A stretch of DNA of 64,000 bases from the NCBI GenBank assembly GCA_017499595.2, contig CM039007.1, forward strand, positions 2,852,001-2,916,000. The letters are read 5' to 3'. The position numbers and the translations under genes were made by a program. Positions 17,346 through 56,426 of this stretch are shown piece by piece (within the stretch, counting starts at the first letter, position 1; every line of letters begins with the position of its first letter). This DNA comes from Psilocybe cubensis. Lineage: Eukaryota. A model generated the notes under the pieces. The model did not search any database. It worked only from the letters and a program-made list of their open reading frames with translations, and was not told the DNA's origin.

Positions 17346-18412
17346 TGCTTGGGAATTGGAGTTGGAGTTGGACGAATTAGACGAGCTTAAATGGTTATCG
17401 ATGAGTGTGGGGATCAAAGTTTATACTATGCCATATCGGAAAGAACTTTGGCTAAATGACATCAGTTAACATCCCGTCGAGAATTGGAAGTCACTTTATG
17501 TCCCAAGTAAAGGTGGTTTAACGCTGACCACTGGAATTGTTGGTCGCACCATTGACGCACAAGTTCATGTTATCATCGGCAAAAGTGACAAGATCCCCAA
17601 ATGCCTTTTGTGCCTTTTTAAGCAGGTCAATGTTTTGCGTGACATGCTAAGTCACACAAAAACATTTTACTAAAATTTGGAGGTGCATAAAACATTTGGA
17701 GAGCATTTGAATGCTCCACAAACATTTATGCACCTCAAAGTTCAGTACAAAATATTCCATGTATTTACATTTATCTCTTAATGATTTGTTGGCCATAAAA
17801 CTTGCAGGGAACAATTGATTAAAAATAAAAACAAAGAATAAAACATTGAGTTTAACTTCTTATTGACACAGATGATTAAAGGGCTTCAAATATGTTCAAA
17901 ATGATTTAGGTAGGAGAAATTTTACTGACCACACGTAATACCTATGACGCTGGCAGGTTGTTTCCAATACGACACCATTGTCATAAGAATTACATGTACG
18001 TGAGAAATTTGACTTCAAGAAATACACATTAGAGAGGCCGTCTCCCCTGACAAATTAAATCGGAGACTGAATATCCGTTTTGAGCATAATAATCTGAGAC
18101 ACGCCCAAGTCGCTTTCTTTCTACCCTCTCATTTCCACCACTCTGACGACGGCGCTCTCTGGCTTCACTCAACACTGCAATGCCTCTTTCTTGGTACTTT
18201 GAGACTGGTATAGAGCTGAAAAGGTAAAAGACATGCTCTTTTTTCATCACACAAACCTAACTGACTGTTTTATACCTATTTATGGCTTGTTCTGTTGATA
18301 ACCAACGATCTACCCCGATGACGTCACACCACCTTTATCATTTTTCCCCTCATTCCTAAACAACCACCTTTATACTCGTCTACGTAGAATAACTCTTTGT
18401 ACAATGGGGAGG

Positions 18413-18449: not shown

Positions 18450-18808
18450 CTCTATCATATAGAACTGAGGTATGCATGTCTTCACTTTCACATCTTATTC
18501 ACTACCTAATGTACCGTACAGTTTATTTCCCCTCTCTAGGTACATTGTCATGTAATTGAGTCTCTATCATATAGAACTGAGTTTATTTCCCCTCTCTAGG
18601 GTCTTGATTTCCTACAGGTTATGGGCCTTTCTTGTCACAATTAAAGTGGCACGAATCTTGACCCTATTACGATCTAATCTTATCAGCGCGCCCTTATCAG
18701 CGCGCCTTTTGATCCCTTTCATTGGAATACTCCCCGCATATTACTGGCTGCGGACTCCCATTCCTCTTCATAAGGCTACTCTAACTATCCTATACACTTC
18801 CTACTACC

Positions 18809-30876: not shown

Positions 30877-33800
30877 TTAATACCCGAGGTGAATATAAGG
30901 AACCCACGTCACCAACGCTCGTTCAGTATCTTTCAGACTATCTCTAACCATTTTCGTTGCATAATCCAAGGCAAAGGCTGCCCGTGTGCTGTCCAGACCT
31001 CCGTTGTTCGACTCTCTCATCAAGTACTGATAAAACTCGGTAGCAAATTTTGGGCCATATGAGTCTGTGATGTTCCACATTGTACCGATTACACCTCGAT
31101 ATCCAACGGCAAGCATACCTGCTGCGAGATGGACGACTTCATCGGATAATAGTGAGTCTCCTTGACTTGTTTGGCATGCAGAGAGAAATGCTAGCTCTGG
31201 ATCTATAATTCTATGTTTCATAATTTCCAAGAGGGTAAGGCGCCCGTTTTGAAGGCAAATTCCACTTTCGAGAGGGTTTGCGCGATCCTGGACACCATAA
31301 CATGCGAAGTGTGCCCAGCTATGAGACAGCATTTCCTTCTGGACTTTTTCCACCGTTGCATCTGCATCGTCTAACAGCAAAGTATGGATATGTTTTGTAA
31401 TTGATTGTACAGAGCTAATTTCCGTTCTCGTCGAAGGTAAGGAACTTAGACCTGGAGTGCTGGCCTGGCCAACAAGTAGAAGGTTACGAGACTTGGAAGG
31501 TGACGATTCCAATGCGACGGCACTTTTTTCCACGACGGATCTGACTGTAGGCGTGTATGATGATACCACGAAATCAGAAATACATAATCCGTACCGGTAG
31601 TTCTCCCCATAAATTCCAGCAGCGTGAAGAGGAAGGAATGAAAGAGAACCCGTTGGACACCACCACAAACGGCTACGTTCAGCCCCAATAACAAGCTCCT
31701 TCTAAAAGAAAACAAGTGTCAGAAATTGTAGTCAATTGGGGTATCTTAAGGTGACTCACGGGATATGCCAGAGCGTCAAGGATGGGTAACACAAGCTTAT
31801 GCCAAATTTCACGAAGAATGAACGACATAGGTTCCGGATTGTTTTTTCGGCGTCGGCTCGCCCGCTCTTCACCGTTACTACGTTGGCCCAAAATATCTGT
31901 CTGAAGGATTTTTCGCAGACTTTCCGCATCTGAAGCACTGAAATTTTGAAGCGGGATGTGCAAAGGGTGCTCCATCCCTGCGCTAAGAGCTAATGCATCG
32001 CATCGAGTCTTGTGAACATTGAATATAATAACAGACCCTTCATGTGGTAAAGAAGAGAGTATGATGTTGCATTTTTGTGGTCGGAGAAAATCTTGAAAAT
32101 TTGGCAGAGACCTGATTTCGTCAAGAAGTCTCTTGTACTCTGAAGCGAGTCGTGTATGCGCCAGAGTTTGGTCTTGAGCGTGTAAATCTTTTGGCAAAGT
32201 CTCGTAAGATGTAGGCGCCGAAGAGTCTACTCTTGTGCTATATGATTCCAATTGCAAGGCAAGATTCGTGAATCGAGTAGCATGAGATGGGAATTTATCT
32301 TTGAGGCGAATGAGTGGATTTCTTAGGTCAGTTATTTGATTCCACACCAAACAGCGCCCTTGTTCAAGCCATTCAAGCGCGATATCTACCTCCCCAAAGC
32401 TGAGGGCAGTTGAGATTGCTGTGTTGATAAAAGCAGAATGTGGCTGGATGTAGTCGTGGCGGCGGTGAATGGTTTGTTCTAGACCGGCCACCTCTGAAAG
32501 AAGACCAATCGCCAAAGAAAAGTCATCAAGACAATGGGAGTGATCATGAGAGTCCGCCAGGAGGGCAGCTTCCTTGGCACACGCGAGGCGAATAGACGGG
32601 AACCCATTTGAGGCAGCACCTCGACGATATGCACCAATACAGGATTGGATATCCGCGTCCTGCTCGCTCCTCTCAAACTTGCTCAGATATGCGTTTCCGA
32701 GGCTAAATAGTAAGCTGGGGAGCTCAGCGTGTCCGACATCAATGTGCTTTATGGCTGCCTCGTAAAGAGAAATTGCGTTGTCGAGATGATTCATTATTGC
32801 TGCTCTATGAAAGAGGCTAATGTAACAGACAGCCAAATTGGCAAGCCTGCCTGGGAGATGGGAATGCCCAATAGATGTTCTACGTAGTGCTTCCTGATGG
32901 TATAGTATGGCTTGAAAGGCATCCTGTGCATTTCCATTGAGTTCAAAGCGGCGTTCATGAGCGTTACCTGCATTGCTGAGCCGCCTAGGCAGATCGGCAT
33001 GATTATTCTCAGTGTGATTGATCGATTGCTGGTGGTTTTCAATGGCCGAATCAAGGTCTTGTACATCTCTAGTTTAATCAAACCTCGCTAAGTATGAGCA
33101 CCCAAGATTGCAGGCCCACCTAGGAAGGTCGATGTGTCCAGGAGAAGTACAATCCAGTGCTTTCCTATGGTATAACACGGCGGAATCGATATCTTGGATG
33201 CTTTTTGTTCGTTGGAAACGATATGCATATGAGATCCCGAGGTTGGTAAAACGTCTTGAAAGGTCTGCATGATCAGCTGGCGTAGAGATCAAAGCATTTT
33301 GGTGGTGGGATATGGCAGAATCGATGTCTTGAAGGTCCCCTGTAGATTGAAAACGTGATGAATACGAGCATCCCTATGGCTGTCCGTTTGCACATTTAAT
33401 ACCAATCATTAAACTTTTTGTCCCATATTTAGAAGTCTTGGACTAAGTCTTCCAATAACTATATCTTATGGTGTCCGAAGATAGAGAAAAGGCTTCCAAT
33501 CATAAAGATCTCATATCCACACATTTGTATATTGCAACCTTAGGTACAACTTTGAGTACCATACATATAGTTTTGGAGCCCACATATATATATTAGAATC
33601 CCTTACATAGGAAACCCATGCCGTTTCATACATTTTTTGCTCCCCCACATATATCTACTGGTTCCGGCAATCTTAGATTTTACCTGTCGTCGTCCCGAAG
33701 AAATACAGGTGATTTTCGGCATTCGTTCCTGCCGTGGCAAGCTTGCCTTCGTGCGAATTCGGCATATCTCGGCAATCAGCCAGACGAATCACAGCACATT

Positions 33801-35550
33801 GCTGTTTTTTCACCTTGACACAGGCAGAGTAAGCACTGACACAGTTTCAAATACTAACCGATTGTGAATGCTATAATGTAAGCTAAATACAGCATTATTG
33901 AGTGTTTTTTCTGAGCCAAGCGCTGTGATAACAGCCAGTAGCAGATATGTTAAGTTTGGTTAAGGTTAAATACACCTGAAGTTGAGGTTATAGGTGGTCA
34001 ATCTACTCAGGGTCAGCTATACGCACAGGTTTTGTGTTTCATCATCAAACTCGAAATTTTTAATGCATATCTGAACTTAAAGTATTCCCCTAGCTGCTTC
34101 AGGAGTAGCTATCCACCCCAAAGCGGGGTACAAATATAATTCCCACACGGATTCGGCAGTGCCGGCACGCAGGGTAGTCATCTCGACAACTCTATGTCTT
34201 TGGAAAAAATGTTAGATATATGGGGAGGGGATTACAAAGTATGGTACGGGATGTCATATATAGGGGTGAGATGTATATATGTATGTACCATTCATTAAAG
34301 TTGAAGATTCTGTAAATACAATTATCGGGATGATTTCCTCTATGCTCGGAAACTAGCTCTCTATGAGTGGGACATTAATATATATAGTGGGGATTGTATA
34401 AAACTGTTCTCTATATGTATGGGACAAAAAGTTTAATGATTGGTATTAAATGTGCAAACGGACAGCCATACATCCCAGGTTATTTAACACCATTGGTAAT
34501 TGTGCATGTCGGCGAGGAATCAAATCGAGTGCCTTCTGGTGATTGTCTATTGTGCGATTAATGTCAACAACTTTTCCTGATCGAGCCCCACGACGTGAGT
34601 ACGATTTGCCCAGATTACCGAACCAGGTGAAAAGATCGGCATGACCAGCAGGAGTGAGCGCTATTGATTTCTCATGGTTCAAGATGGAAACGTCCAAATC
34701 ATCGAGGTCGGCGGTGTGCTCATATCTACAAAAATACGAGTACCCGATGTTGTTGTAAAATCCTGGCAAATCCTCACTACTTCCCGAGGTGCTTATAATT
34801 GACCTTCGGTGGCATGATATAGCCTGATTGACATCCGTAAGGTCCCCTGAACGCAAAAATCGATACAAATATGCTGTCCCAAGGTTAGTGAGCCATGTAG
34901 CAAGCGGAGGGGGGGTGCAATTGACTGCTTGTAGATGATTCAATATGGACCTATCAAGATCCTCGAGTACAGCAGTTCGTTTATAACGAAGGCCGTACGA
35001 ATTTCCAAGGTTACTGAGTAGATGAGGAAACTCTGGTTGTTTCTCAGGAGTAATGGAGATAGCCTCAGTAAGACTAGCAATCGATCTGTGAATGTCGTCT
35101 AATTCTCCCAAACGCTCGAAGCGTGAATTTAGTGCACTAGCGAGATTACTCAGTCGGGTGGCTTTCCGTGGATTTCCATGTGGGGTGTGCTCCAGTGCCT
35201 GCTCAAAGTCGAAAATGGCCTCTTCAATATCCTTTAGAGATGAGGTATGATAGAACCGTTTTAATGCGAACACTCCGTGGTTTGTGAAATCTTCCGCCTT
35301 CATATGGAATCAACCAACATGCTCAGTGCTGATGCAAAAATATTTACCTGCATGGTACCAAACCCCGTTGACATATAGTTTCCCATACTCGAATAAACTG
35401 CTGGCAGGAAGTTGGCGTTGTGAGAATTCACGGTAAGGCCGTCTATGACTATTGATGAATGTGTTGAGGAGGTCAAAGGGTTGATTTTCTCTTTCGTTGC
35501 AGAGAAGCATACATAAGTCTTGAGCTCTATAAACAGATGCACCCTAGAAC
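30877..35550 (-). pseudogene. TPR-CHAT caspase-like protease pseudogene (5' end not resolved)
   Basis: TPR array, EWLEQGR.LVW, WWCPTG.L.FLPLHAAG, LSACQT. Lesions: TE insertion at 33375-34470, in-frame TAA at 33074-33076, catalytic HFACHG changed to HFACYG (31297-31299). Confidence 0.9.
33375..34470. mobile_element. Non-autonomous TIR element, IS3EU-like ends
   Basis: ~52-bp TIR TATGGCTGTCCGTTTGCAC...; 6-bp TSD CATCCC on both sides; interrupts the TPR reading frame. Confidence 0.9.
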
Positions 35551-35562
35551 GTGTTCAACACG

Positions 35563-36876
35563 TATGGCTGCCCAAGTGGGGAAATATTCCCCGTAAACTT
35601 ATTTAGGTATTTTTCTTACTGCGTGAATTTGTAAAAAATATGTTGGAGCGCGGAAACATTTTTTGAGTGCGCAGATTGTTTTCTAGCTTAGCCGTAAATA
35701 TATTTGATTGCGCGGAAACATATTTGACTGCGTGGAAACATATTTTGGACATATTTTGCTAGCGCACGTAAATTTTTACTGCCCTCAATTATATTTAATG
35801 CATAAATCCTATGCGCGTAGAAACATTTTGAGCCCCAAACAAATCTTTCGATGCGCGGAAAACATTGTTCAGTTGCACTATTTCTAGCCTAAATTGACCA
35901 AAACAAGTTCAAGCTCCAACAGTTGTATACACAATGCATGGTTATTCTATCTATTACTGCCTTATAGGACAAAATAACAATTTCTGCAGTGCTTTACATG
36001 AAGCATTAGCAAATCCCTAGTGGTTATGGGGTCTCCCCATTAGTGGTGCAGCTAGTGCGCCATTTCAGACATCTCTAGCACTGTGTGAAATAACCTCATC
36101 AATCGTGGGAAAGACATCAATCAGTGCATTCTTGAGCGCATTTGTGCATTTGGAGTGTCGGGAATAGGAGAATAAGATTGAAAATCATGGTAAGATATGT
36201 ATTACATAGGTATCTACGAGAATATGTCAAAATATTACCGCAACTACTGTGTACGAAGTAAAGTATTAGCAGCGGCCATCACAATTGCGCATTAGTGGCT
36301 GTGCAAGAAAGCGACACTTCACGTTCAAGCAACATTCACGGCGATTTCAAGACGATTATCCCACATTACTTGATTAAAACAACATTAATATATTTCAAAA
36401 GAGCATAGATTAGATATACTAAGAAATTTGTAATTAAATGAATGTGGGTTAGCCTTGCAATACACAATCCTCAATATCACTGTCAGGTGGAGCTTGAACT
36501 CGTTTAGGTGTGCCGAAGTGCCATTTTAGATCATTTTACATAATCTCGGCATACCGGCTGGTCACTTTGGGCTAGAAATAGTACAACTGAACAATGTTTT
36601 CCGCGCATCGAAAAATTTGTTTGCGGCACAAAATGTATCTACGCGCACAGGGTTTATGCATTGAATATAATTGAGGGCAGTAGAAATTTATGTGCGCTGG
36701 AAAAATATGCCCAAAATATGTTTCCGCGCAGTCAAATATTTTTATGGCTAACCTAAAAAACAATCTGCGCACTCAAAAAATGTTTCCGCGCTCCAACATA
36801 GTTTTTACAGATTCACGCAATAAGAAAAAAACCTAAACAAGTTTACGGGGAATATTTCCCCACTTGGGCAGCCATA
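35563..36876. mobile_element. Non-autonomous long-TIR element, IS3EU-like ends
   Basis: TATGGCTGCCCAAGTGGGG...CCCCACTTGGGCAGCCATA; imperfect TIR of ~320 bp; 6-bp TSD AACACG. Confidence 0.9.
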
Positions 36877-37264
36877 AACACGAGGGGTTGATAAACGCAT
36901 TCTCTCCTATAGCAAGACCCCAGGACCAGGTTATGTAGCCTATACTACTGTTATAAGCTACATATACCGCAACTAAAATAATTGCACGGTCCCCCCCAAA
37001 AAAATAAAAAAGAAAGAATAAAATGAAATGAAATGAAATGCAGATGAGATAGAAGAATGCAGATTTTATTTAAAGTAGAACATCTCAGTAATAAAATAAT
37101 AGCCACGACACTGAGTGGGATTGAAAATAAGCTTACGAAATGAACGAAGTAGGTTACCCGGCACGTCAAGTGCGTGCAGCTCACCCAAGTCTCTCATAAT
37201 CAGATCCCATTTTTAACAGGCGCCAATCGGCTTCATTTTGATTGAGGTATTTTCGCTGCTTATG

Positions 37265-38447
37265 TATGGCTGCCCAAGTGGGGAAATATTCCCCGTAAAC
37301 ATAATTTGCTTATTTTTGAGAAGTGTGTCAAGAATAGAAAATGATTTATGCGCGGAAACATTTATTTGGTGCACAGATTGCTTTCTGAGGCAGTTTGATG
37401 AATCCGTAAACACAATTGTCTGCGCGGAAACATATTTCAGACATAATTTGCAAGTGAGAGTGCAATATTTCTGCCCCAAATTAAATTCAACGTGTAAATT
37501 ACATGCGCGTAAATAAAATTTGTGCGCTGAACAAACCTTTCAATGCGCGGAAAACATCATTCGAAATGACATTTTCTTGACCAAAGTGGCCAGCCGCGAT
37601 TGCCTTGATTATGTAAATTGATCCATTATGGCACTTCGGCAGAAGTTCTACGAGTTAAAGCTCCGACTGTCCTGTGCAACAGGTATCTTGCCATTACCAT
37701 TTTGTAGGGTAAGGTATCAACAACTTTTTGGGCTCCATATATATAGTAACACCTATCTGGTGCTTTTAAAAAGCTCCACATTGGTGGTGCAGATTGTGCA
37801 CTATCTCAGACAGCCCTGGGACTGTTTAAAAACTGTATATATTGTGGGAATAACATCAATCAGTACGTCTCTGCCTGTATGTTGCACGTCTGTGAAGTTG
37901 AGCATGTCTAGATAAGATTAGAAAGTCATATTAAGACAATATTTAATGAGTAAAAATGTAATTAATGGCCAATAGTACTTCATAAATGGCAGTACAAGAA
38001 ATCGACACTTTGTATTGAATTGCAATTCTAGGTTATGCATTCAGTTGGAGCTCTTAACTCCATGAGAATGTGCCGAAGTGCCAGAGTGGATCAATTTACA
38101 TAATCACGGCAATCGCGGCTGGCCACTTTGGTCAAGAAATGGTCATTTCAAATAATGTTTTCCGCTCATTGAAAGGTTTTTTCAGCGCACAAAATGTACT
38201 TACGCGCATGTAATTTACACGTTAAATATAATTTGGAGCAGAAATAATGCACTCGAGCTTGCAAATTATGCAAAAAATATATTTCCGCGCAGTCAATTTT
38301 GTTTATGGACTCGTCAAATTTACCTCAAAATCAATCCGGGCACCAAACAAATGTTTCCGCGCACAAGTTTTGTTCTATTATTGACGCACTTCTTAAAAAT
38401 AAGGAAATTATATTTACGGGGAATATTTCCCCACTTGGGCAGTCATA
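37265..38447. mobile_element. Non-autonomous long-TIR element, IS3EU-like ends
   Basis: Same termini as 35563-36876; imperfect TIR of ~380 bp; 6-bp TSD CTTATG. Confidence 0.9.
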
Positions 38448-40640: not shown

Positions 40641-43600
40641 CTAGTAACCAAAATGTACATAAGGGACCCATTGGGAAAATGAGCTATCACAGTCCACCAG
40701 ACATTGTTGAACTTGTTTTGTCGCATAGTCTAACGCAAATGCTGCATCCCCACAGTCCAGGTTCCCGTTGGATTGCTTGTTGTTAACTATGTATTCGTAG
40801 AATTTGATAGCAAACCTCGGTCCATAAGCGTCAGAAATATTCCACATCGTACTCACAACTCCACGATATCCTGCTGACAGCATACCTGCAGCAGTATGGA
40901 CGGCCTCTTCTGAAAGCCTATCGTCCCCTTTTGAGGTCTGACAGGCCGAGAGGAATGCCAAATCTTTGTTTGGGATATTCTGCTGCATAATGTCAAGAAG
41001 TCCCAGGCGACCATCATAAAGGCACAGGCCGCTAGAAAGCGCATCTCCATGATCTTGAACACCATGACATGCAAAGTGAACCCAATTGTGAGAAACCATC
41101 TCTTTCATGACATTCTCCTTTGTTGCGCTCGTGTCCTCCAGCAATCGTGTTTCTATCCCAGTTCCAAGGAATAGGGTTTGAATATCATGCGTCTCTTTAC
41201 GAACCGAAGGTATAGGGTTCAGTCCTGGTGTGTCAGGCTGGCTGATTAGAAGGATATCAGTAGATGTGGATTGTACAGGTTTTGACGCCATCTTCTCCAG
41301 GAGGAAGCGCACGGATGGCGTGTATGACGACACCACATAGTCACGAACATTAGAGCCAGTACAATACTCTGATCCGTATATTCCTGCTGCATGGAGAGGG
41401 AGAAAAGCAAGAGGACCAACGGGGCACCACCATATGCGTCGCCGGTTTAGTGGTTCATTGGAGGCCTGTAATTTAACATGAGAATCCTTGATGTCGTTTA
41501 TGAGCTCGATTCAACAGCTACGTACCGTATAACCTAATGCCTTGATAATTGGCCAAACAATCTTCTGCCAGAGTTCCTTTAATATATACCTCATAGGCTC
41601 TGGACGTTCATGACGACGGCGAGTTCCACGTTCCTGATTGTCGACATCACGTTTGTCCAGAACATCAACTTGAAGAATTTTCTGCAGCGCCTCGGCCTGT
41701 TTGATGTCAAATTCTGTAAGGGGTACGTGCAATGGAGCACTGCTATCCTTTACAAGCGCTAAGGCATCACAGCTAGTCCTGGAAATATTAAATATTATGA
41801 CAGGCCCTTCAGCAGGTAGAGACGCTAGGATATGGGCGGCCTTTGCGGGCAAAAGAAAGCGTTCGAAGTTTTTCTGACTTCGAATTTCCGACAAAAGGCT
41901 TTTGTATTGAGCTGCAAATAGCGTATGATCCAGTGCTTGACTTTGAAGGCTGATATCGTCTGCAAGATTTATACCAGACTCCACTGTAGCCGGAACCTTT
42001 CGAGTTCCATGATGCTCCAACGCTTTAGCTAAGTTCAAGAACCTATCAGCTAGGTTCGGATGTTTCTCTTTAAGATCGTCAATCGGTGTTCGGAGCTGAT
42101 TTATCTGACTCCAAACCAAACATCTTCCCTGTTCCAGCCATTCCAGAGCAAGATCAAGTCTACCAAAATCTAATGCTGCGCCAGCTGCTGCCCTTATGAG
42201 ATTAGAATGACCTTGGAGGTTGTAATGACGGCGAGAGATTGTCTGCGATAAAGCCGCTACCTCTGACAGTAAATCTATAGCGAGTGAAAAGTCACTTAGA
42301 CATCCCTCGCGATCATAGTCGAATGAGATAAACGCAGCCTTTGTTGCAGCATCAAGGCGAGCAGATGGAGTCCCTGGTGCATTGGCGCCTTTGCGATATG
42401 CCTGAATTGCAGCCTGTATATCAGGTTGCGAATCGCAAAGCTCAAACCGACATGCATACGAGATACCCAAGCTGTACAACATCGTGGTGAGAATGGAATA
42501 CGTGGCAGGCGTGAGATCAATAGCTTGTTGGAAATATGATATAGAGAGGTCAATGTTGTCAATGAAACAAGTTTTCTTGAAACGAAGGCCGTGAGCATTT
42601 CCAAGATTACCGAGCCACGCTCCTCGAGCCGTATGATCCTTAGGTGCGCAGTCCAAGGCTTTTCTTATGAATGCGATGCTGTTGTCGATATCGCAGAGGT
42701 CCTGCGTATGGTCGAACTTCAACTCATATGACGTTCCCAGATTGTTTAACCAGTTTGGAAGAACCGCGTGGCCAGCTGGAGCCAGGTCAATTACTTTGTG
42801 GTGAAGGATCAATGCAGTGTCAATGTCCTCCACGTTATGGGAATGCCTGAAGCGAGTATCATAGGCGTTGGCCAACAAGTTAAGATATCTTAGATACTCT
42901 GCATGATCGGGGGGAGTGAAATCAACCGCTTTATGATGATAGGAAATGGAATGGTTAATGTCTTGATCGATTTTGGAGTGTTCAAAGCGCACTCTATACG
43001 AATATCCTAGGCCACAAAGCAGAATCGACAAGTCAGGGTGATCCGAAGGCATTGAGTCCACCCCCTTTTGGTGGTACGATATTGCATAATCAATATCTTG
43101 AAGATCTCCGGTCACCATGAATCGAGACAGGTGAGCATCTCCCAGGTTGTGGATTCGCCGGGTAAGCTCAGAATGTCCGGGGGGAGTGCTTTGCACCGCC
43201 TTCTGATTGTACATGAGGGCGCGGTTATTGTCTTCAAGGTCACCAGTCCGCTCAAAACGCGACAAGTAAGATCGGCCAAGGTTGCTTAGGTAGACGGCAA
43301 GGTTTTGAGCGTTGGATGGTGTAAGCTTTACAGCCTTTTCATGATAGGAAATCGCCGAATTGATATTTTCAAAGTCACCAGTGCGATTAAAACGAAGAAG
43401 ATAGGACGTTCCCAGATTTGCGCAGAGGCTTGCGTTGTTAGTCGAGCTATCACATTCCAAGGCCATTTTGTGATACGAAATTGCCGAATCTATGTCCAGA
43501 AGGTCTCCCGTGCGTTCGAAGCGACGTCCATAAGAATGTCCTAGACCATTATAAAATCCTGAAAGATCTTCATGCCCAGGATGTGTGGAGTCTGCTGCCT

Positions 43601-45428
43601 TCTTATTACACGCTATAGCCAAATCTAAATCGAGAAGATTTCCCGACCGTTCGAACCGGCGTGTATATGAAAACCCAAGCCCATGATTCCAACTCGGAAG
43701 ATCTGGATGTCCAGATGGTGCGAAATCGATTGTTTTCTGGTGGTATGATATAGCAGCCTCAATGTCTTCCAGACTTCCAGTGAGCTCAAACCTACTGACG
43801 TATGCATTTCCCAGCTTATGGAGTCGACTGGGATAAGAAGGATCATCTGCAGAAGTCAAATCTAGAACCTGCTTCCAATAGTCGATGGAGACATCGGCGT
43901 CTTGAAGTTGCTCACTATTCTTGAAACGGGAATGATACGAAGATGCCAATTTTTCCAGAGACATGAGACGCGTCGGACCTTCATGAGGAGAGCAGTCCAA
44001 CGCTTGGTGACCAAAAGAAATAGCAAGATTGATATCGTGTACATCATGGAATTGTTCTGAGCGCGTCCTGTATGCGATTGCAAGATTTATGAACGACCTC
44101 CAAAGGATGTCTTTGTTTGAATTAGCATTATCAACAGCTTTGCGATGATATGATACAACCAGGTCAATATCGTTTATGTCTTGAGTACAGTTGAAACGAT
44201 CCGCATAAAGGTTTCCGAGTTTGGTGAGGATATTGGGGAGATTGCTCGGGGGGCAGGATTCCTCCATCTTCCGGAAGTGAGATATGACAAAATCGAGATC
44301 ATCGAGGTTATGGCTAAGATTGAAACGAATTTCGTAAGAAATCACAAGGTTATTAAGCCACCTTGGATGGTCGTCGGAAGTGGAATTAAGCGCCTTCGTG
44401 TGGTACTCTACTGCGTGGTCAATGTCGCCTAGATCTTTTGTTTGCTTGAACCTGCATCGATGCAAAATCCCCAGGTTGCTGAAAATATTAGGTAGATTCG
44501 GATCGCCTTCATGAGCTAGCCTTACAGCATCTTCGAGTGTCGAGATAGCCTTAGTAATGTCTGCAAGGTCTCCAGTAAGATCAAAGAGCGATTGTAAGGC
44601 ACACGCTAGGCCGTTCAAGCGGTCGGCCATCTCCTCGTGCTCGTCTGGGGTGCGCTTCACCGATTCTTCGAAGTTTAAAATAGATTGTTTGAGGTCCTGT
44701 ATATCGCCAAATCGTTCAAATTTGCGCAGAAAGAATATTCCGCATTGTTCAAGATACTCCGGCTGTGTTTGATCAGTTATAACAATAAGTAATTGAGGTT
44801 CGTGACTGACATTCATAAAACTCTGCAAATTAATTGTAGTAGTATAGCTGTCTTGGTGATTTCCCACCTGCACCTCCTCGTAGTTTGTCCAGGGGGTGGG
44901 ATCCTGTTTTACAAAAGGTGGGATTTCCTCGTCGTTTTGTAATCGTGGCCAGTCCCGTGAACTCTTATCAACCTTCTTCAGGGTGATCACAAGACATTTC
45001 CTCGGAAGATCCTGCCTCACAACCATAGCCTTTAATTGTCAGTTAGAAGATCCACGCTGTGAATAGAAATCGATTCACCTCCGAGTCAACTTTTGAATAT
45101 AGAACTAGGTCAAATGCATATTTGGCTTCGTTCAGACTTCTGGATGAATAGGACAATTCTGATGAGTATCTAAAACCACTTCCATGGAAAAGAATAACGT
45201 ACTCTCTGGGATAAGCCCGAAATGAAAGAGTTTTATCCAAGACGGCAGTTGTGCACTTCAAACATGATGTTGCAATGTCGGGAATGTTGACGGACAGACG
45301 AATCAAATTCTGTAAAAAAAATGTTGAGTAAGATGTATCATTGGAATATGATGGTAACATACCTCTTGGTCAGTGGTTTCTGAACTTTTCTGGGCCCAAA
45401 AAACTGATGGAATTATGTGTGACGTCAT
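40641..45428 (-). CDS. p23/Sba1(CS)-TPR-CHAT caspase-like protease, apparently intact
   Basis: Exons 45428-45363, 45309-45203, 45139-45079, 45029-~41526 and ~41465-40641. N-terminus MTSHIIPSVFWAQKSS...NLIRLSVNIPDI...YAFDLVLY...LKK...DWPRL; long TPR array; CHAT dyad HFACHG and LSACQT intact. Confidence 0.88.
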
Positions 45429-49162: not shown

Positions 49163-50368
49163 ATGTCACTCAATATAGGAATCCCAGCTCCCTCACCCAC
49201 GGAAATTTTGTTTGGCAAAGGCTTGCTGGACGCATTTTTACGCACTATCACAAAGACTATTGAAGCTGCACCGGTACCTCTTGCCACAGCTCCCAAATGG
49301 AAGGTGTGTTTGTATCGTAACAACCATAAGCACCGTTATTGATATCATATGCGCAGGCGACAGCTGCGATTCTCAAGTCCGGTATGTAGCCTCCTTCATT
49401 CTGTGTGCAACGGTGACTGACATGTTAAAACGTAGCCATTAGGGATGACATATCCAAGCTTATTTTGATTAGGCCACATATGAAAGTAAGAGGACATCAG
49501 GTTAGTTCAATCCATTGGATGAGGAGTCACAGACTTAGAAATTGTGTGAGCAGATCGACCATGTTTTTGAATTGCAGGTTCGTAGTGAATATTTATCAGC
49601 CAAAAGTGTTGACTTATTGTTGCTGCTCCAGTATTTTGTTTCTGCTTTCCTCTTCACTGTCGGCCTGTATATTATGACAACTGGAGACGTCACGTTCAAG
49701 CCCGATGTAACCGATATTTCGCTGGCGGTAACAATCATCAATTCAGAGAGCAATGTGTGCGCTTTGGTCAACAGGAAGCACAAGTTTAAAAGGGAGTTTT
49801 TCAGAGCGTCTGAAACCAAAGGTGGGGCTTGGGTTCACCGCTTGTACTGCGTTTCTAATTCAATGTAGAGTTCTACGGAGATGAAGACACGATCACAGCC
49901 AACCTTGACACGCTCCTGGAATACATGTGTACATACAGCTCTCGCTTCTCAGCGTACCTGACAGAGTTATCAAAGACAATCTTAGCAAAGCCCGATATCC
50001 ATACACCGTTCAAGACAATGTTCATCGCAAATCTCCTCTTGACGCCGTGGTGTCAGGGTATGATGTGGAAGCCCATTTTCGACAACGCACGCCTTCATCA
50101 GGTACCCTTTTCCAAAACTGTCACCATGAAAAATTATATGTCGCAGCCCTGGATGAACGACAATCTGGTTTATGAGAAGATCTCGGTAGCGATTGGCGGC
50201 GAACCCACGGAAGATGAATATATCAAGAAAGGCGCGATGGTCTATACTTATGACAAAGAACAACAAGAAATCGGTATAATCGAGACCGAGCCGTTCACGG
50301 AAGAGGAGTTGAGGAAGCGGGGGTTGTGGGATGATGACTCGTGGCTGGAGGAACCTTTACCGATTTAA
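49163..50368 (+). CDS. HNH-like motif protein, tandem paralogue 1
   Basis: Six exons in the same layout as the paralogues; GHQ-IDHVFELQ...INSESNVCALVNRKHKFK; C-terminus MKNY..QPW..DN...W. Confidence 0.8.
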
Positions 50369-51187
50369 CGAAGACGACACGGGTGGCCTGTGCGCAGCCA
50401 CTAGCTCGTAAACATATGCACACGATAATATGAATAGTATCTGCAATTTTGGCTGCCGTGCAGTCTGAGCTTGATGAACCCTCAAACTACTTGTCACAAG
50501 TTTATTGAAAGCAATGTGGGGTTACTTGTGCGATTCATGTTCGCAAATCAGGCCCCGCCATTTACATTAAGCGCCGGTAAACTATGTATATGGGGCTTAA
50601 TAAGTTAATTTATTACGGGTCTGACGATGGTAGGACAGAATCCCCACTAGATGGTTAGGACATTGACAAAACAAGGTGTATATTGGACTGGCACAATATG
50701 TGCCCCTATGGACCATCGTCAATCCAGCTCCTGCCTCCGAATTTTTGGTCTATTGTTCCTATATTCCCCTTACGACGTCTCGGAGATTTTTGCATCCGAT
50801 TATTGACATGGCGTAATGATGAAACTGGAACCGTCTAACAGAGACAGGATTCCCATATAGGAAATGTAGCGATTAACGTTTCAGGGATAACACTGACAGA
50901 GGTAACGTAAGTGCAGGCGAAGTACTAAGAAGGATCGTGTATCTCCGAAGAACGTCAAAGGTTCAGGCACCGAGATGAAGAGATAGCCTTATACGCTCCA
51001 TCACGTCGAATTGAGACCCATCATTGTATTGGGTTAAACCGGTGCTTGATAGTGCCGGATCATTGCTGAATGACCTTTCGTTCCTCGTTTGTTACGGAGA
51101 GTGTTCCTGATGTTTGAACACCACGGGAAGGCGTTATAAGGTCGTAAAAACCATCCTGGATGTGTAGTCTGAATCATTCCACATAAA

Positions 51188-52386
51188 ATGGCAGATCAAT
51201 ACATACCTCCTCAAGTCACCGATAGCATCCGCTTTGAAGGTGTACTTGAGAAGTTTTTGAGCCATACAACCGTATCATTGAAGAAAGTAGGCGTCATTCC
51301 CGTAGCTTGGAGAGTGAGCCTTGTCTACGTATCATTGCATGATAATGTTCTAACTGTTCTGCAGACGATGGCTGGTTACCTTAAAGCCGGTGTGTACCCG
51401 ATGCCCTTTCTCATCCTCGTCTGTTGAAGTAGCCTTATAAATGGATTAACAGTTATTAGAGACGATTGTTTCAAGCTCAAGTTGTTGAGGCAAGAGTTCA
51501 AGCAGAAAGATCACCAGGTATGATTTCGTCTTTTCTTGGAATAACCCCGTAGTGATGCTTGAGTTTTACAGCTCGACCATTTATTCGAAGTCCAGGTAGG
51601 TCATGCTAGGCATTGATCGTGATCTACGTGATTAATTGGTTCATTACTAGTACTTCGTTGCTACATTTTTGCATACCGTTGCGCAGTTTATTTGCACAGA
51701 AAATATCTCCTTCAAACCTGATATCACGGACATCTCATTTGCAGTTATGCTCATAAACTCGAAGGCCAATCTTTATCCCATGAAAATATTTGAGCACAAG
51801 GTCAAAACGGCGTTCTTTAGAGCGGCTCAAATTAAAAGTAAGTTTGTTGTAACATATCTATCTCTATTTTCATTGAAAACATTCATATGTGATAGAACTC
51901 AATGGAGAGCCACAGTACCTCGACGCGAACCTTAGCGCCCTTTACAACTACCTAATGGAAAAAGGAATCATATATTGTGACTACTTGACGAAGCAAGTAA
52001 AGATCTCTGTCAATGATCAGAGTCACACGAACCCCATGTTCAAGAAGATGTTCGTCGACAATCTTGCAGCAAGTCCGTTCTGTCAGGTTTCCGAATGGCA
52101 GGATATCTTCAAAAAATTACGGGATTTCAGTACACCATTTTCGACAACGATAAGCAGCAAGAACTATATTCCGCAGCCATGGATAGACGACAACGTCGTC
52201 TATGACAGCATTGGCGATCACCTTGCATCTCAGCCTCTCGCTCACTCGGAGAAAGATTTTCACGAGGCGATACAACCGTATAATCCTGACTACGTATACG
52301 TTTCCATAGGTATAGAGTTGGCTCCAATGTCTCCTGAGAAATTGAAGTCGATGGGGCTGGTGAAGGAAGATGGGTGGCTGGATTGA
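51188..52386 (+). CDS. HNH-like motif protein, tandem paralogue 2
   Basis: DHQ-LDHLFEVQ...INSKANLYPMKIFEHKVKT; same intron positions. Confidence 0.8.
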
Positions 52387-53179
52387 ATTGTGCCGATAGC
52401 GGGTAAATATTGGAGGTGGCAGGTATGCAGCCACCAGTTGAAAAAATAATAGCATACCAATTATCACTGTTCCAACGTACCTAAAAATAAGAATCATTCG
52501 TCGGATTTAAAAAGTTAACTGAAGATAGGGTGAAAGTTCAGCTTTGCCATTGGATTTTCCTTTCAAATCACGACATCACGACATTTCCTCTACCTAGTTT
52601 CCCTATTCTCTCTCTTCACCAGTGGCCTTCACTTGTCACTGCTTATGAAAGATAATTCAATTTTGCGTTGTGACTAAACTCCCCTAATACGTGCAGCACT
52701 AATCCGCATCTCCGTCGAGTATACACTTGTTTAAAACCCACTCCCTTTCAGTCCTGTAAGTATCAATACCTCATTTCATCCTCTTCATACCGTTCATCTG
52801 ACACCACGCCCTCATAGCACCTCTATTAACGCTTTCTATAACAACTCTACTCGCGCGTCAAACACGCAGCAATGACATAACAAGGCACTTGATTTCCTTC
52901 AATTAATTCGGTTACACCAGTCATCCTCGGTGTCGTATGTAACACCACAGGGGACATACCCACTCGGCACCTCCGGTGTTCAGTATCTCCGACATCTTGC
53001 CCCATCCCCATCAACCACCGAGGTAACACACCTTGACGCATGTCAGGAACGCACACACGCTCATTCTACAGTGTTCCGTTCCCCGAAGGTATGAGTTGTG
53101 TGAGGTGGTGGAATGGAATGAAGTATAAAATGGAGATAGGGTTTAGGTCTATGAAGCCATTTTGCGCGCACAGACTACA

Positions 53180-54407
53180 ATGGCTGACTACGTTGCTCCA
53201 TCAATTGCTCAGAGCTTACGCAGTGAAAGTGACCTCGAAGGATTCTTGCGCCATGCAAACAAGGTATTATTGGATAATGCACAAGTGGCGCTCGCATTCA
53301 GGGTGAGTTTTCATGTATGAATGAAGGTCATTGCTCTGGGGTGGCTAATGGCGCGTTTACTCATGAACCGTAGGCGACTGCTGGCGTCCTCAAAGCAGGT
53401 CTGCATTCGTGTAAATTATTCAAGCAGAGGGTGTCCTAACTTACTTGTTCTAGCAATCAGAGACGATTGTTCCAAGCACATGGTGTTGCGGAAGGAGTTG
53501 AAGAAAAAGGGAAGCCAGGTTAGCATGCAACGTCAATAGCGCAAATGCTAGTCATGATGATGACGCCCGCGTTTGATAGCTCGACCATGTATTTGAAGTC
53601 CAAGTGAGTCACGCTAAGCCTAAGTTCATTTCGTATCAGTTCGATTAAACCGTTTGCTGAAACTTTTCCAGTACTTTGCGGCTACGTTCCTACACACCCT
53701 CGCCGAGCATATCTGTGCAAATCCAAACTTTAAACCCGACGTAACGGACATATCATTTGCGGTATTGCTCGTCAACTCGCAAGCCAATCTTTGTCCCTTG
53801 GGAATCTTTGAGCACAAGTTCAAAACGGCGTTTTTTAGAGCCGCTCAGACCAAGAGTAAGCCGTTTTTACGCATTACACCGTCATATTTCGACAGATTCT
53901 GACTTATGTGATCTTGCTTCTTGTGTAGAATTCAAAGACCCGGAAAATTTGGAGGATAACTTGTCGAACCTCCTGGGCTATTTGAAATCTTATGGCGCCA
54001 TCTTTCAGAAATTCTTGGAAGATATAAAGCAGGATATTGTCAATTATCCTCACTATTCATTCAAAAAACTCTTCATCGACAACCTCTTGGAGACCCCGTG
54101 GTGCCGCCCTGACGACTGGGACGCGATACTGACAGATGCAAGGCTACATCAGACACCGTTCTCAAAGAATATGACGATGAAGAACTACATCCCTCAGTCC
54201 TGGTGGGACGACAACACGTATTTCAAAGGAGTTGCGAAGCAGATTGTCGGTGGAGAAACGGAAGATGAATATATAACGTCTGCGCAGCAGGTCGAGTGTT
54301 ACAACCCTAACGGGTTGAACGAGAATGTCACCATTTACAAGGACGTCATTCCGGAACAATATTTGGCTTTGTTGGGATTAGTTAAGGAGAATACGTGGTT
54401 AGAATGA
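53180..54407 (+). CDS. HNH-like motif protein, tandem paralogue 3
   Basis: ATG 53180 MADYVAPS; GSQ-LDHVFEVQ...VNSQANLCPLGIFEHKFKT. Confidence 0.8.
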
Positions 54408-55035
54408 GGGGTCGTTCGTGGGTTCGTGATTTGGGGTGGTCCGTGCGCAGCTACTAGGTTAATTGAAAACAATTGCGCATAGCATGAAATATACATGTCA
54501 TTGAACCGTTGGTCACAGATTTGCGACAAATATTTGAAGTCCTCGTCGTGAATGAGGACCCTATAGAGTCTGTCATCCATTGATAGGGTATCGTCAGGTT
54601 CTGTCTCCTTACGTTTTGAATATCTTTGTGGGTCTTGCGTGTGTAAATAGTATAACGTTAACTTTGGTAATTGATTGCGGTATCAAATTGATTCCTGATC
54701 GAAACTAATTGTTGACATTAGCTTGGATAACCTCGTTCCGGTGAGGTATAATCCCGAGTTTACGTTTGTGTTGGAGTATGGAGGTCGGGAACTGTTACAG
54801 AGGTATGAGAATGGGCCTGACTGTCATTAATTGTTTCGTCAGGAAGATCAAGTCTCCTTCTCCCCGGAGACGTTTAATCCCGGAGCATCTCGTATGGAAA
54901 AGGCACATAGCGCTGTCACAGTAGCGCCCCTGAAGGGTGAAATGATTTCTCCCACGGGTGTTTGCTTGTTGGTCCCCATGCCCTGAAGAAAGACGTATAA
55001 AGCCATGACGTGTCTTTGGAGCACAGCGCTCGAAA

Positions 55036-56275
55036 ATGGAAAACATCTATATCCCACCAACCATTATTGAGAGCATTCGTAAAGAAACCGACCTTCGGGA
55101 TTACCTAAACCGTGCAGTAGAGCATGCGAAAACTAACGGAGCCACACCGCCTGCTTTCCGAGTGAGCCCTGTTTTCCAGCTACATATACACCCTCTTCCA
55201 TGGGAGCTAACGGATTCATTCGTAACCACCTCTTAGACGATTGGTGGCATATTGAAATCCGGTATGTTCTTGACTACTTCATTTCACATGTGGTGTGTAA
55301 CGTTGTATCTTAGCTATCAGGGATGATTGTTCCAGGCACATGTTAACCAAACAAGATTTAAAGAAGGTAGATCATCAGGTAAGTTCCGCTCTATAGATTC
55401 ACAAGCGCCTGTACTGAATCTGACGCTGACCACGGTAAGCTCGATCACGTTTTCGAGGTCCAGGTACGTTCATCGACTTAAACGTTACACGCGTACAGGG
55501 TTAACAGTGATTTAATTGTCAGTATTTTGTGGCTACATTCCTGTATGCAACTGCAAAGTACATACTGGAGTCGGACCACACGTTCCAGCCAGACGTATCG
55601 GACATCTTGTTTGCGGTACTGCTTATCAACTCCCGTCCCAATCTACAACCATTGCACATCACTAAACACAAGTTCAAAACTGCCTTTTTCAGAGGCGCCC
55701 AGACGAAAAGTAAGCAAACTATCCTGGAGTTCTGGCTTATATCTTAAGATTATTGTTAATGTTATAAAATCTTCTACGCAGAATTTGTAGGCTCCCATTC
55801 CACAGTAAAAGCAAACCTTGACACCCTCAAAGAGTACTTGATCATACACGGGGCCAAGTACAACGAGTTCCTTTGCTCCATATTGGGCACCGTTGTCACT
55901 CCAAAGAAGTATACCAACGCCAACTTCAAAAATCTGTTTATCGTTCAACTTTTAGTGTCTCCATTCTGTCAGAAGTGGTTATGGGATGACATTTTCGAGC
56001 AGGCATTAACGGCGAAGAAACCTTTTTCGAGGAACATGACTATTATGGATTACGTTCCCCACCCATGGCTGGACGACAATGTGTTCTACGATAGCATCCA
56101 GAAGCACGTCCTTGCACAGCCCACCGAAAAGGAAAGTATCCAGGCCGCTGAGGAGGTGGAGACGTACAACGCAAAATATATATATGAAGATATTGGTGGC
56201 GAGGAGCTTGGGCAGATGACAAAGGAGCAGTTAGCTGCGACAGGGATGACGGCGGAAGATGATTGGATGTATTGA
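55036..56275 (+). CDS. HNH-like motif protein, tandem paralogue 4
   Basis: MENIYIPP; DHQ-LDHVFEVQ...INSRPNLQPLHITKHKFKT. Confidence 0.8.
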
Positions 56276-56426
56276 GGATCAATTTTAGCAGAGAGCGATG
56301 GTCAGGAGCGCAACCACTGCATCATGGGAGATGTGTATAGGACATCTTGGTTTCTAACCATTTTTGTATACTATACACCCCAGTAGTTCGGCTTTCTGTA
56401 TCCATTCATACAAGCGATAAAGTTAA

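Follow-up and report, generated by a model that had tools for sequence, protein, structure and literature searches.

Four tandem genes in a 64,000-nt stretch of Psilocybe cubensis contig CM039007.1 (hereafter the window) encode proteins whose shared core is, with a probability that we put at roughly 0.55, a strongly diverged DUF1524/GmrD-type nuclease domain of the His-Me finger (HNH, ββα-metal) superfamily. This reading rests on invariant residues, a predicted topology, a residue register in common with BrxU and GmrD, protein-language-model neighbours, selection and recurring tandem duplication. Judged from sequences and models, the quartet is probably a His-Me nuclease variant, and no statistical test proves the kinship. 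The data show the gene models, their conservation, selection on them, the rarity of the family and the predicted order of secondary-structure elements; membership of the fold, metal binding, nuclease activity and a role in defence, in conflict or as a toxin are what we infer.

The four-gene array and its relatives

The genes (A to D) lie on the forward strand at window positions 49163-56275, about 2 kb apart, and each has six exons in the spliced models (Table 1). Exons 2, 3 and 4 measure 25, 65 and 24 nt in every gene, intron positions and phases are identical, all 20 introns (47-75 nt) run from GT to AG, and each of the four spliced proteins matches its database counterpart letter for letter. 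These models bear out the first-pass annotation, made from the sequence alone, which had described a tandem array of four genes for proteins of ~300 aa with identical intron positions. Intron 5 of gene A has a weak donor, GTGGGG. A tblastn search of the window found no fifth copy.

Genes A to D are old tandem duplicates maintained by selection. Pairwise protein identity between the paralogs is 37.9-45.8% and dN is 0.48-0.58, while synonymous sites are saturated (NG86 dS 2.3-4.2 in three of the six pairs, the remaining three allowing no estimate). Despite this saturation, all four frames are open and the splice sites of all 20 introns are intact, in agreement with the earlier suggestion of strong divergence after old duplications kept by selection.

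Among 1.84 billion representative proteins we found 17 real family matches, with named members from Psilocybe, Galerina and Tulasnella; the family is so far known only from Agaricomycetes (mushroom-forming fungi and relatives). Across the genomes of 185,579 species of bacteria and archaea, 69 matches to [DE]H[VL]FE[VI]QY turned up, none of them confirmed. Tandem arrangement recurs: a second P. cubensis pair with consecutive locus tags (JR316_0012740 and JR316_0012741) lies on another scaffold, and in Tulasnella FRC03_002718 and FRC03_002719 share one 4977-bp contig.

A conserved 23-nt 3'-UTR element occurs three times in the window, where 0.01 matches are expected, and gene D carries a degenerate version. 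Genes B, C and D have TATAA(A/G) boxes, consensus matches only, at -53, -56 and -40, equivalent to that of gene A.

Table 1. Features of the quartet (window coordinates; residue numbers are those of gene C)
Feature	Position	Strand	Remarks
Gene A (JR316_0011151)	49163-50368	+	314 aa; spliced model = P0004
Gene A exons	49163-49303, 49357-49381, 49436-49500, 49554-49577, 49632-49821, 49869-50368	+	
Gene B (JR316_0011152)	51188-52386	+	305 aa; spliced model = P0002
Gene B exons	51188-51313, 51365-51389, 51453-51517, 51572-51595, 51651-51837, 51896-52386	+	
Gene C (JR316_0011153)	53180-54407	+	299 aa; spliced model = P0001; modelled with AlphaFold2
Gene C exons	53180-53302, 53374-53398, 53454-53518, 53580-53603, 53672-53855, 53929-54407	+	
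Gene D (JR316_0011154)	55036-56275	+	306 aa; spliced model = P0003
Gene D exons	55036-55161, 55237-55261, 55314-55378, 55440-55463, 55523-55709, 55782-56275	+	
Gene A micro-exon 4	49554-49577	+	IDHVFELQ; putative general-base His and preceding Asp
Gene B micro-exon 4	51572-51595	+	LDHLFEVQ
Gene C micro-exon 4	53580-53603	+	LDHVFEVQ (D73-H74)
Gene D micro-exon 4	55440-55463	+	LDHVFEVQ
Second motif, exon 5, genes A to D		+	Putative structural Asn, β2, putative metal-binding His helix
Gene A exon 5	49632-49821	+	Two inter-strand-loop helices, then N-S-x2-N-V-x7-H-K-x-K
Gene B exon 5	51651-51837	+	Content as gene A exon 5
Gene C exon 5	53672-53855	+	N114, N118, β2 (119-123), helix 124-134 with H127 and K130
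Gene D exon 5	55523-55709	+	Content as gene A exon 5
Gene A TATAAA	49126-49131	+	37 nt upstream of ATG; consensus match only
Gene A 3'-UTR element	50382-50404	+	23 nt, GGTGGYNNGKRYGCAGCYACYAG; 14 nt past stop codon
Gene B 3'-UTR element	52415-52437	+	Same element as in gene A; 29 nt past stop codon
Gene C 3'-UTR element	54435-54457	+	Same element as in gene A; 28 nt past stop codon
Gene D 3'-UTR element	56297-56320	+	Degenerate, from alignment; shares core CGCA(G/A)CCAC

Conserved motifs and the modelled core

All four paralogs contain Q[LI]DH[VL]FE[VL]Q. The first-pass annotation had placed this entire motif on the 24-nt micro-exon; the exon encodes only the eight residues from (L/I)DH onwards, and exon 3 ends with the codon for the leading Gln. 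A second motif, N-S-x2-N-[LV]-x7-H-K-x-K, starts 40-42 residues past the micro-exon His, at the distance of ~40 residues originally noted, with seven residues before its His where six had been counted. In gene C numbering, N114, N118, H127, K130, P101, F134 and W204 are identical in all 16 aligned family members, and Q71, [DE]73, H74, E77 and Q79 are kept in the 13 members that cover that segment. No shuffled version of any paralog (200,000 for each) contained a generic form of the motif pair, an outcome that is not a formal P value because the pattern was written post hoc.

Beyond the core, the family has a conserved C-terminal module (TPWC...W...PFSKN..NY.P.W.DDN), and the last 70 residues of the paralogs are acidic (net charge -8 to -12, pI 4.05-4.35). 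Neither a hydrophobic N-terminal nor a transmembrane segment was seen in the four paralogs (maximum Kyte-Doolittle 19-residue window 1.0-1.6), and the quartet proteins showed neither a signal peptide nor a delivery domain at the N terminus; the acidic tail and missing signal peptide were both correctly anticipated.

AlphaFold2 models were obtained for the gene C protein (pLDDT 78, pTM 0.73, its C-terminal tail at low confidence) and for the family member P0014 (pLDDT 83, pTM 0.81); both were built on one shallow alignment of 16-17 sequences and are thus not independent. The predicted elements of the gene C protein are helices 40-61, 78-95, 103-113 and 124-134 and strands 70-74 and 119-123. In both models the order is helix, β1 ending in His, two helices, N-x3-N, β2 and helix. 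The DH pair sits at the C-terminal end of a β-strand (H74 ends strand 70-74; its P0014 equivalent, H8, ends strand 4-8), N-x3-N stands just before the sole other substantial strand, with N118 directly preceding it, and the second conserved His occupies the first turn of the following helix (H127; H63 in helix 60-70 of P0014). In PMC5714182 the His-Me finger superfamily is defined by a β-β-α layout, with a nearly invariant catalytic His ending the first β-strand and an Asn in the loop joining the two strands; the predicted layout of both models fits this definition.

The residue register points in the same direction. In BrxU (plasmid pEFER) the DHIYP motif is part of a DUF1524 HNH nuclease domain (PMC8565348), and the series D474-H475...N505-x3-N509-L-x2-L-x4-N518-x2-K521 corresponds to D73-H74...N114-x3-N118-L-x2-L-x4-H127-x2-K130 in the quartet family, with identical spacing from N114 on. 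The nine-residue step from N118 to H127 recurs in BrxU (N509-N518) and in GmrD (N169-N178), which belongs to the type IV restriction enzyme GmrSD and for which PMC4619093 describes an α-β-α-α-β-α pattern with a long insertion between the strands, the same order of elements as in the quartet family as modelled.

A protein language model, given residues 60-215, listed DUF1524 (0.85), GmrSD_C (0.83), AHH (0.82), GH-E (0.80) and Tox-GHH2 (0.79) among its neighbours, Atlas scores that are all below 0.9 and hence 'lead only' by Atlas's own grading. These neighbours may key on the same short motif and are therefore not independent of the motif argument; that the ten best named Atlas neighbours all belong to one clan was also seen for one shuffled protein in three. 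Among the structural neighbours in Atlas are two GmrSD_C clusters (TM 0.42-0.57, with unrelated families scoring similarly at 0.39-0.44).

Searches for kinship and rival readings

Pfam returned no family for the gene C protein at E≤10 and, among 17 members at that threshold, neither a His-Me family nor PF07510; for scale, the structurally characterised BrxU itself reaches only 17 bits against PF07510, whose cut-off is 23. The bacterial polymorphic-toxin HNH/EndoVII domains (AHH, GH-E, Tox-GHH2) likewise had no Pfam match among the 17 members. PADLOC and NCBIfam gave one unrelated weak match each and no His-Me family at E≤10, and sequence searches of the PDB yielded noise only (E 0.8-2.3). HHalign against the BrxU DUF1524 domain gave probabilities of 0.3-0.6% overall (P 0.10-0.20): the full-length comparison with the C-terminal domain of BrxU picked out another stretch of 16 residues (probability 0.6%), and the best local core-to-core alignment reproduced exactly the shared BrxU register, though at P=0.11 (probability 0.5%). 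Foldseek reached best E values of 0.35 (gene C protein) and 0.40 (P0014) against the PDB and 0.11 against BFVD, with no match at E≤0.001 in either and no His-Me nuclease among the matches listed; since the His-Me motif is small, this test is low in power. The HNH/His-Me reading first put forward, for which structure prediction and Foldseek had been suggested as a check, thus stands as regards the β-β-α layout, present in both models, and falls short of significance in the profile and Foldseek tests.

The failure of every statistical comparison with His-Me families speaks for a lineage-specific helical protein that is no nuclease, in which the invariant His, Asn, His and Lys form a site of another kind, be it for a ligand, a metal or catalysis, or else a structural core, and the likeness to HNH enzymes is convergent or coincidental. 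A make-up of ~85% helical scaffold with no PDB neighbour fits such a protein, as does the C-terminal TPWC...PFSKN...DDN module, which is the best-conserved stretch in distant members and has no counterpart in HNH enzymes. We consider this reading the less likely one, in that coincidence would have to span residue identities, the BrxU/GmrD spacing, the modelled placement and the language-model neighbours.

Selfish or mobile endonuclease genes, either homing-endonuclease-like or part of a transposable element and multiplied locally, would be a very improbable source of the array. HNH domains are common in homing endonucleases (PMC5714182), and the window also contains a copia-type retrotransposon (18785-23500). 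Against this, the genes are free-standing and nuclear, each with five spliceosomal introns and with a TATA box and 3' UTR of its own; they lie ~2 kb apart, only four copies occur in 64 kb, there are few relatives anywhere, and the saturated synonymous divergence argues against a recent spread.

Still more remote is derivation of the core from a TPR_10-type repeat as a protein-interaction module, as in the two CHAT-TPR genes 4-18 kb upstream. Residues 83-148 of the gene C protein do match a TPR_10 protein, P0018 (BLASTP E=9e-07 for the pair, phmmer E=5.7e-05), yet it is matched at E<0.01 by just one of 13 members tested, paralog C, the family HMM gives E=0.25 against it, the TPR genes of the window itself are not matched (best E 0.2), no TPR family appears in Pfam for 17 members at E≤10, and opposite the invariant N114 and N118 the P0018 repeat has Arg and Asp that are not conserved. 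Annotation artefacts or decaying pseudogenes, to which the weak donor of gene A intron 5 might point, are barely credible given four open frames after saturating synonymous change, 20 canonical introns, invariant residues and homologues conserved in Galerina and Tulasnella.

Possible role and comparison with known systems

If the His-Me reading holds, H74, at the end of β1, would act as the general base that activates water, and one divalent metal ion would be held by D/E73 together with H127, which in the first turn of the post-β2 helix would take the position of the DUF1524 Asn. N118 would brace the β-hairpin and K130 would contact the phosphate. Two inter-strand helices, three N-terminal helices and the conserved C-terminal module would make up an all-helical scaffold, apparently one not seen in solved structures. 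The quartet proteins, which have no signal peptide, would work intracellularly with DNA or RNA as the target, and their disordered acidic tail could shield the catalytic half, which is basic. The first-pass proposals of intracellular toxins or effectors, and of autoinhibition by the tail, are speculative extensions of this scheme.

Bolder still, and in our estimate improbable, is the idea that a DUF1524-like His-Me branch confined to eukaryotes and so far unrecognised acts within mushroom cells as an executioner or restriction factor of non-self defence, directed at mycoviruses, invading DNA or incompatible hyphae. A DNA-mimicking acidic tail would keep the enzyme off, tandem copies would diversify beside the CHAT-TPR (NLR-like) sensor genes, and the system would be the fungal counterpart of type IV restriction or abortive-infection nucleases in bacteria. 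No immunity-like partner gene was recognisable among window ORFs of ≥110 aa or flanking ORFs of ≥60-70 aa.

Bacterial anti-phage restriction (GmrSD, BrxU) and toxins are the best-known settings of the His-Me/DUF1524 superfamily. Should the reading be correct, the superfamily would gain a cytosolic, mushroom-specific branch missed by current family models, and with it a compact test of how an HNH active site can drift while its geometry is kept (an Asn-to-His ligand change, a 44-residue helical loop). It would also provide a candidate effector of fungal intracellular immunity or incompatibility in Basidiomycota, where few executioner enzymes are known, and its four old paralogs would form a clean natural series for structure-function work. 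Were the reading wrong, a conserved orphan family of unclassified fold would still be in hand.

Colicin DNases are classical HNH nucleases. With enzymes of this class (PF01844 type) the quartet family shares the H...N...H triad, an Asp before the first His and an Asn that stands nine positions ahead of the final His or Asn; in PDB 4H9D, the Geobacter metallireducens HNH protein, the residues are D53, H54, N68 and N77 (PMC4619093). The classical His-to-Asn loop spans ~14 residues, against 44 with two helices in the quartet family, which lacks zinc-knuckle cysteines and matched no classical HNH protein by sequence or by Foldseek.

The C-terminal domain of TseN, a type VI effector of Acidovorax citrulli, is described in PMC12574953 as a mostly helical DNase without close homologues, with seven helices, a small β-sheet and one essential His. 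Chain 9j9w_B of the TseN entry 9J9W, which is either the DNase or its immunity protein, was the top PDB row in Foldseek for P0014 and ranked eighth for the gene C protein, a match short of significance (E 0.40 and 0.85, probability 0.28 and 0.41, TM 0.23-0.40). TseN and the quartet family have no sequence similarity, and the likeness is a lead only.

Agaricomycetes also encode DUF1524 proteins that, according to PMC5714182, are close homologues of bacterial group 3 (DUF1524), putative extracellular nucleases and possibly acquired from bacteria by horizontal transfer. They and the quartet family belong to one fungal class and presumably to one superfamily, but the quartet family differs in having no family-model match, no signal peptide and no prokaryotic relatives.

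The closest comparison is with DUF1524/GmrSD_C (PF07510), the nearest named neighbour both by language model and by Atlas structure, which shares with the quartet family the [DE]-H pair ending β1 and a long insertion of helices ahead of β2. The presumed metal ligand is Asn in DUF1524/GmrSD_C and His in the quartet family, and DHI.P of DUF1524 proteins is replaced by DHVFE.Q. Unlike GmrSD, the quartet family has no DUF262/GmrS (ParB-like) partner domain, which was absent from the quartet proteins and from the window and flanking ORFs at the lengths given above; stand-alone DUF1524 proteins exist, so the missing partner does not exclude kinship. Compared with GmrD and BrxU, the quartet proteins are eukaryotic and stand-alone, are encoded by intron-bearing genes, and add helical modules at both the N and C termini together with an acidic tail.

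Gene models and age of the tandem array

Gene models were obtained by reading the three forward frames and then splicing explicitly by coordinate. Each of the four genes, A to D, resolved into six exons, and the lengths of exons 2, 3 and 4 (25, 65 and 24 nt) do not vary between copies. All 20 introns are bounded by GT...AG (lengths of 47–75 nt) and their phases are alike, bearing out the four-gene array with identical intron positions described in the first-pass annotation. The spliced products of A, B, C and D exactly match database proteins P0004, P0002, P0001 and P0003, that is, JR316_0011151 to JR316_0011154, and a search with the translation of gene C's final exon retrieved JR316_0011153 (299 aa, NCBI) at 100% identity. 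Using tBLASTn with the four proteins as queries, we found that only these four loci were matched in the window.

Pairwise protein identity among the four ranges from 37.9% to 45.8%. NG86 gave dN values of 0.48–0.58 and dS values of 2.3–4.2 in three of the six pairs, with dS not computable in the remaining three, while third-position identity is 0.38–0.43. A numerical ω is unreliable for these genes, and YN00 provided no estimate in any of the six pairs. As first proposed, the duplications are old: synonymous sites are saturated, yet open frames and splice sites have been kept in all four copies, which points to purifying selection.

A 23-nt element, GGTGGYNNGKRYGCAGCYACYAG, lies past the stop codons of A, B and C, with a degenerate copy past that of D. 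It was matched three times in the window, against 0.01 expected from shuffles, and contains the only 9-mer common to all four flanks (≤1 mismatch), despite the saturated synonymous sites. Although the element is able to form a small hairpin, its fold energy did not surpass that of shuffled sequences in three of four copies and Rfam returned no match, so a role as an RNA structure was rejected; it may serve as a conserved signal acting post-transcriptionally or at the 3′ end.

Pfam assigned no family to any of 21 flanking ORFs that might have encoded a partner or immunity protein. Larger ORFs of the window include two paralogous genes of NLR-like architecture, in which a CHAT protease domain is joined to long arrays of TPR_10/TPR_12 repeats; the nearer of the two ends upstream of gene A, at a distance of ~4 kb. 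Such CHAT-TPR combinations typify the NLR-like genes by which fungi recognise non-self, and no other feature hints at a role in conflict or defence. Further away are an apparently intact Ty1/copia-type polyprotein (gag, pre-integrase, integrase, SH3-like and RVT_2 domains) and an ORF that is possibly a folylpolyglutamate-synthase-like gene. Two stretches are AT-rich (GC of 0.366 at 10001–12000 and 0.388 at 36001–38000, versus 0.42–0.49 elsewhere in the window).

Coordinates of genes, 3′ elements and neighbouring features in the window
Feature	Position (nt)	Strand	Details
HMG-CoA reductase catalytic-domain exon	67-1026	-	Fragment at left edge of window; Pfam E=2.4e-109
503-aa ORF, weak Mur-ligase middle-domain match	15909-17420	-	Pfam E=3e-4, below cut-off
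Ty1/copia-type retrotransposon polyprotein	18785-23500	+	1571-aa single open frame; Pfam
CHAT plus TPR gene	30877-35309	-	Pfam, larger ORFs
CHAT plus TPR gene	40641-45038	-	Pfam, larger ORFs
Gene A	49163-50368	+	Six exons, 314 aa; splicing
23-nt element, copies past A, B and C	50382-50404, 52415-52437, 54435-54457		14-29 nt past stop
Gene B	51188-52386	+	Six exons, 305 aa; splicing
Gene C	53180-54407	+	Six exons, 299 aa; splicing
Gene D	55036-56275	+	Six exons, 306 aa; splicing
Degenerate copy of 23-nt element	56297-56320		22 nt past stop of D

Conserved residues and extent of the family

Both motifs noted at first reading are present in all four paralogues. Of the first, Q[LI]DH[VL]FE[VL]Q, the 24-nt micro-exon codes for eight residues from (L/I)DH through Q, the leading Q being the last codon of exon 3. 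The second, starting 40–42 residues past the His, reads N-S-x2-N-[LV]-x7-H-K-x-K, which corrects the spacer from six residues to seven. Using the numbering of the gene C protein (P0001), N114, N118, H127, K130, P101, F134 and W204 are invariant in all 16 aligned members, while Q71, [DE]73, H74, E77 and Q79 are kept in all 13 whose sequences cover this part, the remaining three being models that are short at the N terminus or annotated differently. Among distant members, the best conserved part is a C-terminal module, TPW[CY]...W...PFS.N.T..NY.P..W.DDN.

The acidic tail was confirmed, with a net charge of -8 to -12 over the last 70 residues compared with +2 to +5 over the first 140. In paralogues A–D, no segment, whether N-terminal or internal, is hydrophobic enough for a signal peptide or a membrane span; because they lack a signal peptide, as had been noted, the proteins are probably cytosolic.

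When 1.84 billion representative proteins were searched in full with phmmer (E≤0.001), 19 matches were returned, comprising the four window proteins, 13 apparent family members, many of which are short fragments, and two spurious matches. The relatives include the products of another two adjacent P. cubensis genes (JR316_0012740 and JR316_0012741), one protein in Galerina marginata (GALMADRAFT_138744) and three in Tulasnella sp. 419 (P0019–P0021), two of which share a 4977-bp contig. By eye, the Tulasnella proteins end in a hydrophobic stretch resembling a C-terminal membrane anchor, not in an acidic tail. The annotated JR316_0012740 protein (P0007) is without the DH micro-exon residues, and its 24-nt exon may have been either missed in annotation or truly lost. 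The family may be somewhat larger than these matches suggest, because its nearest structural neighbour in the ESM Atlas, a Basidiomycota cluster of 139-aa proteins (TM 0.53–0.67), has 57 members.

Across bacterial and archaeal genomes representing 185,579 species, none of 69 matches to [DE]H[VL]FE[VI]QY, a pattern derived from the 11 full-motif family members, was confirmed as a relative. A 6111-aa Shewanella VCBS-repeat protein (P0012), with 15 weak repeat matches, was also rejected. Among the papers listed on His-Me finger proteins in Agaricomycetes and on DUF1524 in fungi, we found no account of the family, nor did we find any on the P. cubensis JR316 genes.

Profile searches and predicted structure

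Pfam searches with eight large-exon translations produced only sub-threshold noise (Calx-beta, ISOA1-3_C and DUF4261). With P0001 as the query, Pfam gave no family at E≤10, and none of 17 members matched a His-Me family. PADLOC and NCBIfam gave no relevant match for the whole family, and PDB sequence searches, whether run with a single protein or the family profile, returned noise only.

For direct comparison, we used BrxU (plasmid pEFER), a known DUF1524/GmrSD_C (PF07510) His-Me finger nuclease. A DUF1524 profile was built from BrxU and 120 relatives, all 57–99% identical and hence of low diversity, from which a 64-sequence C-domain profile was used. Full-length HHalign of the family against the latter aligned an irrelevant 16 residues (probability 0.6%), and DUF262 and linker controls scored about the same. 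When core was aligned to core, the best alignment was exactly the catalytic register, at P=0.11 and a probability of 0.5% with this low-diversity profile. Even BrxU scores only 17 bits with PF07510, whose cut-off is 23, which shows that the domain diverges fast and that the comparator profile was weak.

We used AlphaFold2 without templates to model P0001 (pLDDT 78, pTM 0.73) and P0014, a shorter natural homologue (pLDDT 83, pTM 0.81), both models resting on one shallow alignment. The predicted P0001 structure runs from helix 40–61 to strand 70–74, which ends in D73-H74, then through helices 78–95 and 103–113 to N114-x3-N118, strand 119–123 and helix 124–134, with H127 in its first turn. These are the sole strands in the model and must pair with each other, and the order of elements is common to both models. 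Confidence drops past residue 220, leaving the acidic tail largely unmodelled (pLDDT <50 at 226–235, 258–278 and 294–299).

Foldseek found nothing at E≤0.1 for the full P0001 model in the PDB (best E 0.35) and BFVD (0.11), or for the P0014 model in the PDB (0.40), and no His-Me nuclease, BrxU included, was among the matches listed. Chain B of 9J9W, a DNase or immunity protein, was the first PDB match for P0014 and ranked eighth for P0001, non-significantly in both cases (E 0.40 and 0.85; TM 0.23–0.40). This entry is a complex between an immunity protein and the C-terminal DNase of its cognate type VI effector, TseN of Acidovorax citrulli. The DNase is described as having seven helices and a three-stranded sheet, with a single His that is essential, and as lacking close homologues (PMC12574953). 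On the basis of the models, the entry may offer a weak structural lead.

Among the named language-model matches listed for residues 60–215, the nearest were DUF1524 (0.85), GmrSD_C (0.83) and AHH (0.82), followed by GH-E (0.80) and Tox-GHH2 (0.79), all below the 0.9 required for more than a lead, and for a third of shuffled proteins the ten best named matches all fall in one clan. Structural neighbours in the Atlas included two GmrSD_C clusters (TM 0.42–0.57), in a comparison where unrelated families also reach 0.39–0.44.

A candidate DUF1524-like active site

The HNH/His-Me assignment of the first-pass annotation is supported by residue register and predicted order of elements, while Pfam, HHalign and Foldseek yielded no significant match. 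We favour, with a probability of roughly 0.55, a diverged DUF1524-like His-Me nuclease. The main rival, a non-nuclease orphan family whose motif arose by convergence, sits comfortably with the null searches and would leave the shared register to coincidence; we consider it less likely. Derivation from TPR proteins is a minor rival, prompted by residues 83–148 of paralogue C (window 53426-53620 region), which resemble one repeat unit of the TPR_10 protein P0018 (BLASTP pair E 9e-07). P0018 was rejected as a relative, being matched by paralogue C alone and by neither the other 12 members tested nor the family HMM, and we judge the likeness to be a paralogue-specific chance resemblance. Together with this result, the splice models and the tBLASTn, Pfam, dN/dS and flank analyses also counter the minor proposals of mobile endonuclease genes and annotation artefacts.

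In a DUF1524-like nuclease, H74 would be the general base, D/E73 and H127 the metal ligands, N118 the brace of the hairpin and K130 a phosphate contact, setting the putative active site in a helical scaffold without a solved counterpart. Roles as toxins or effectors, with an autoinhibitory tail, might be envisaged for such proteins.

The order of elements in both predicted models agrees with the His-Me finger definition, in which the loop is at times elaborate (PMC5714182). For GmrD/DUF1524, whose key residues are D113, H114, N169 and N178, an α-β-α-α-β-α order has been predicted in which a long insertion separates the strands (PMC4619093), and the models match this as well. The DHIYP motif of BrxU is described as part of its DUF1524 HNH nuclease domain (PMC8565348), and the BrxU sequence, D474-H475...N505-x3-N509-L-x2-L-x4-N518-x2-K521, parallels D73-H74...N114-x3-N118-L-x2-L-x4-H127-x2-K130 in the mushroom family. 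At the presumed metal ligand the two differ solely in having Asn in BrxU and His in the family, the classical alternation between HNN and HNH (PMC5714182).
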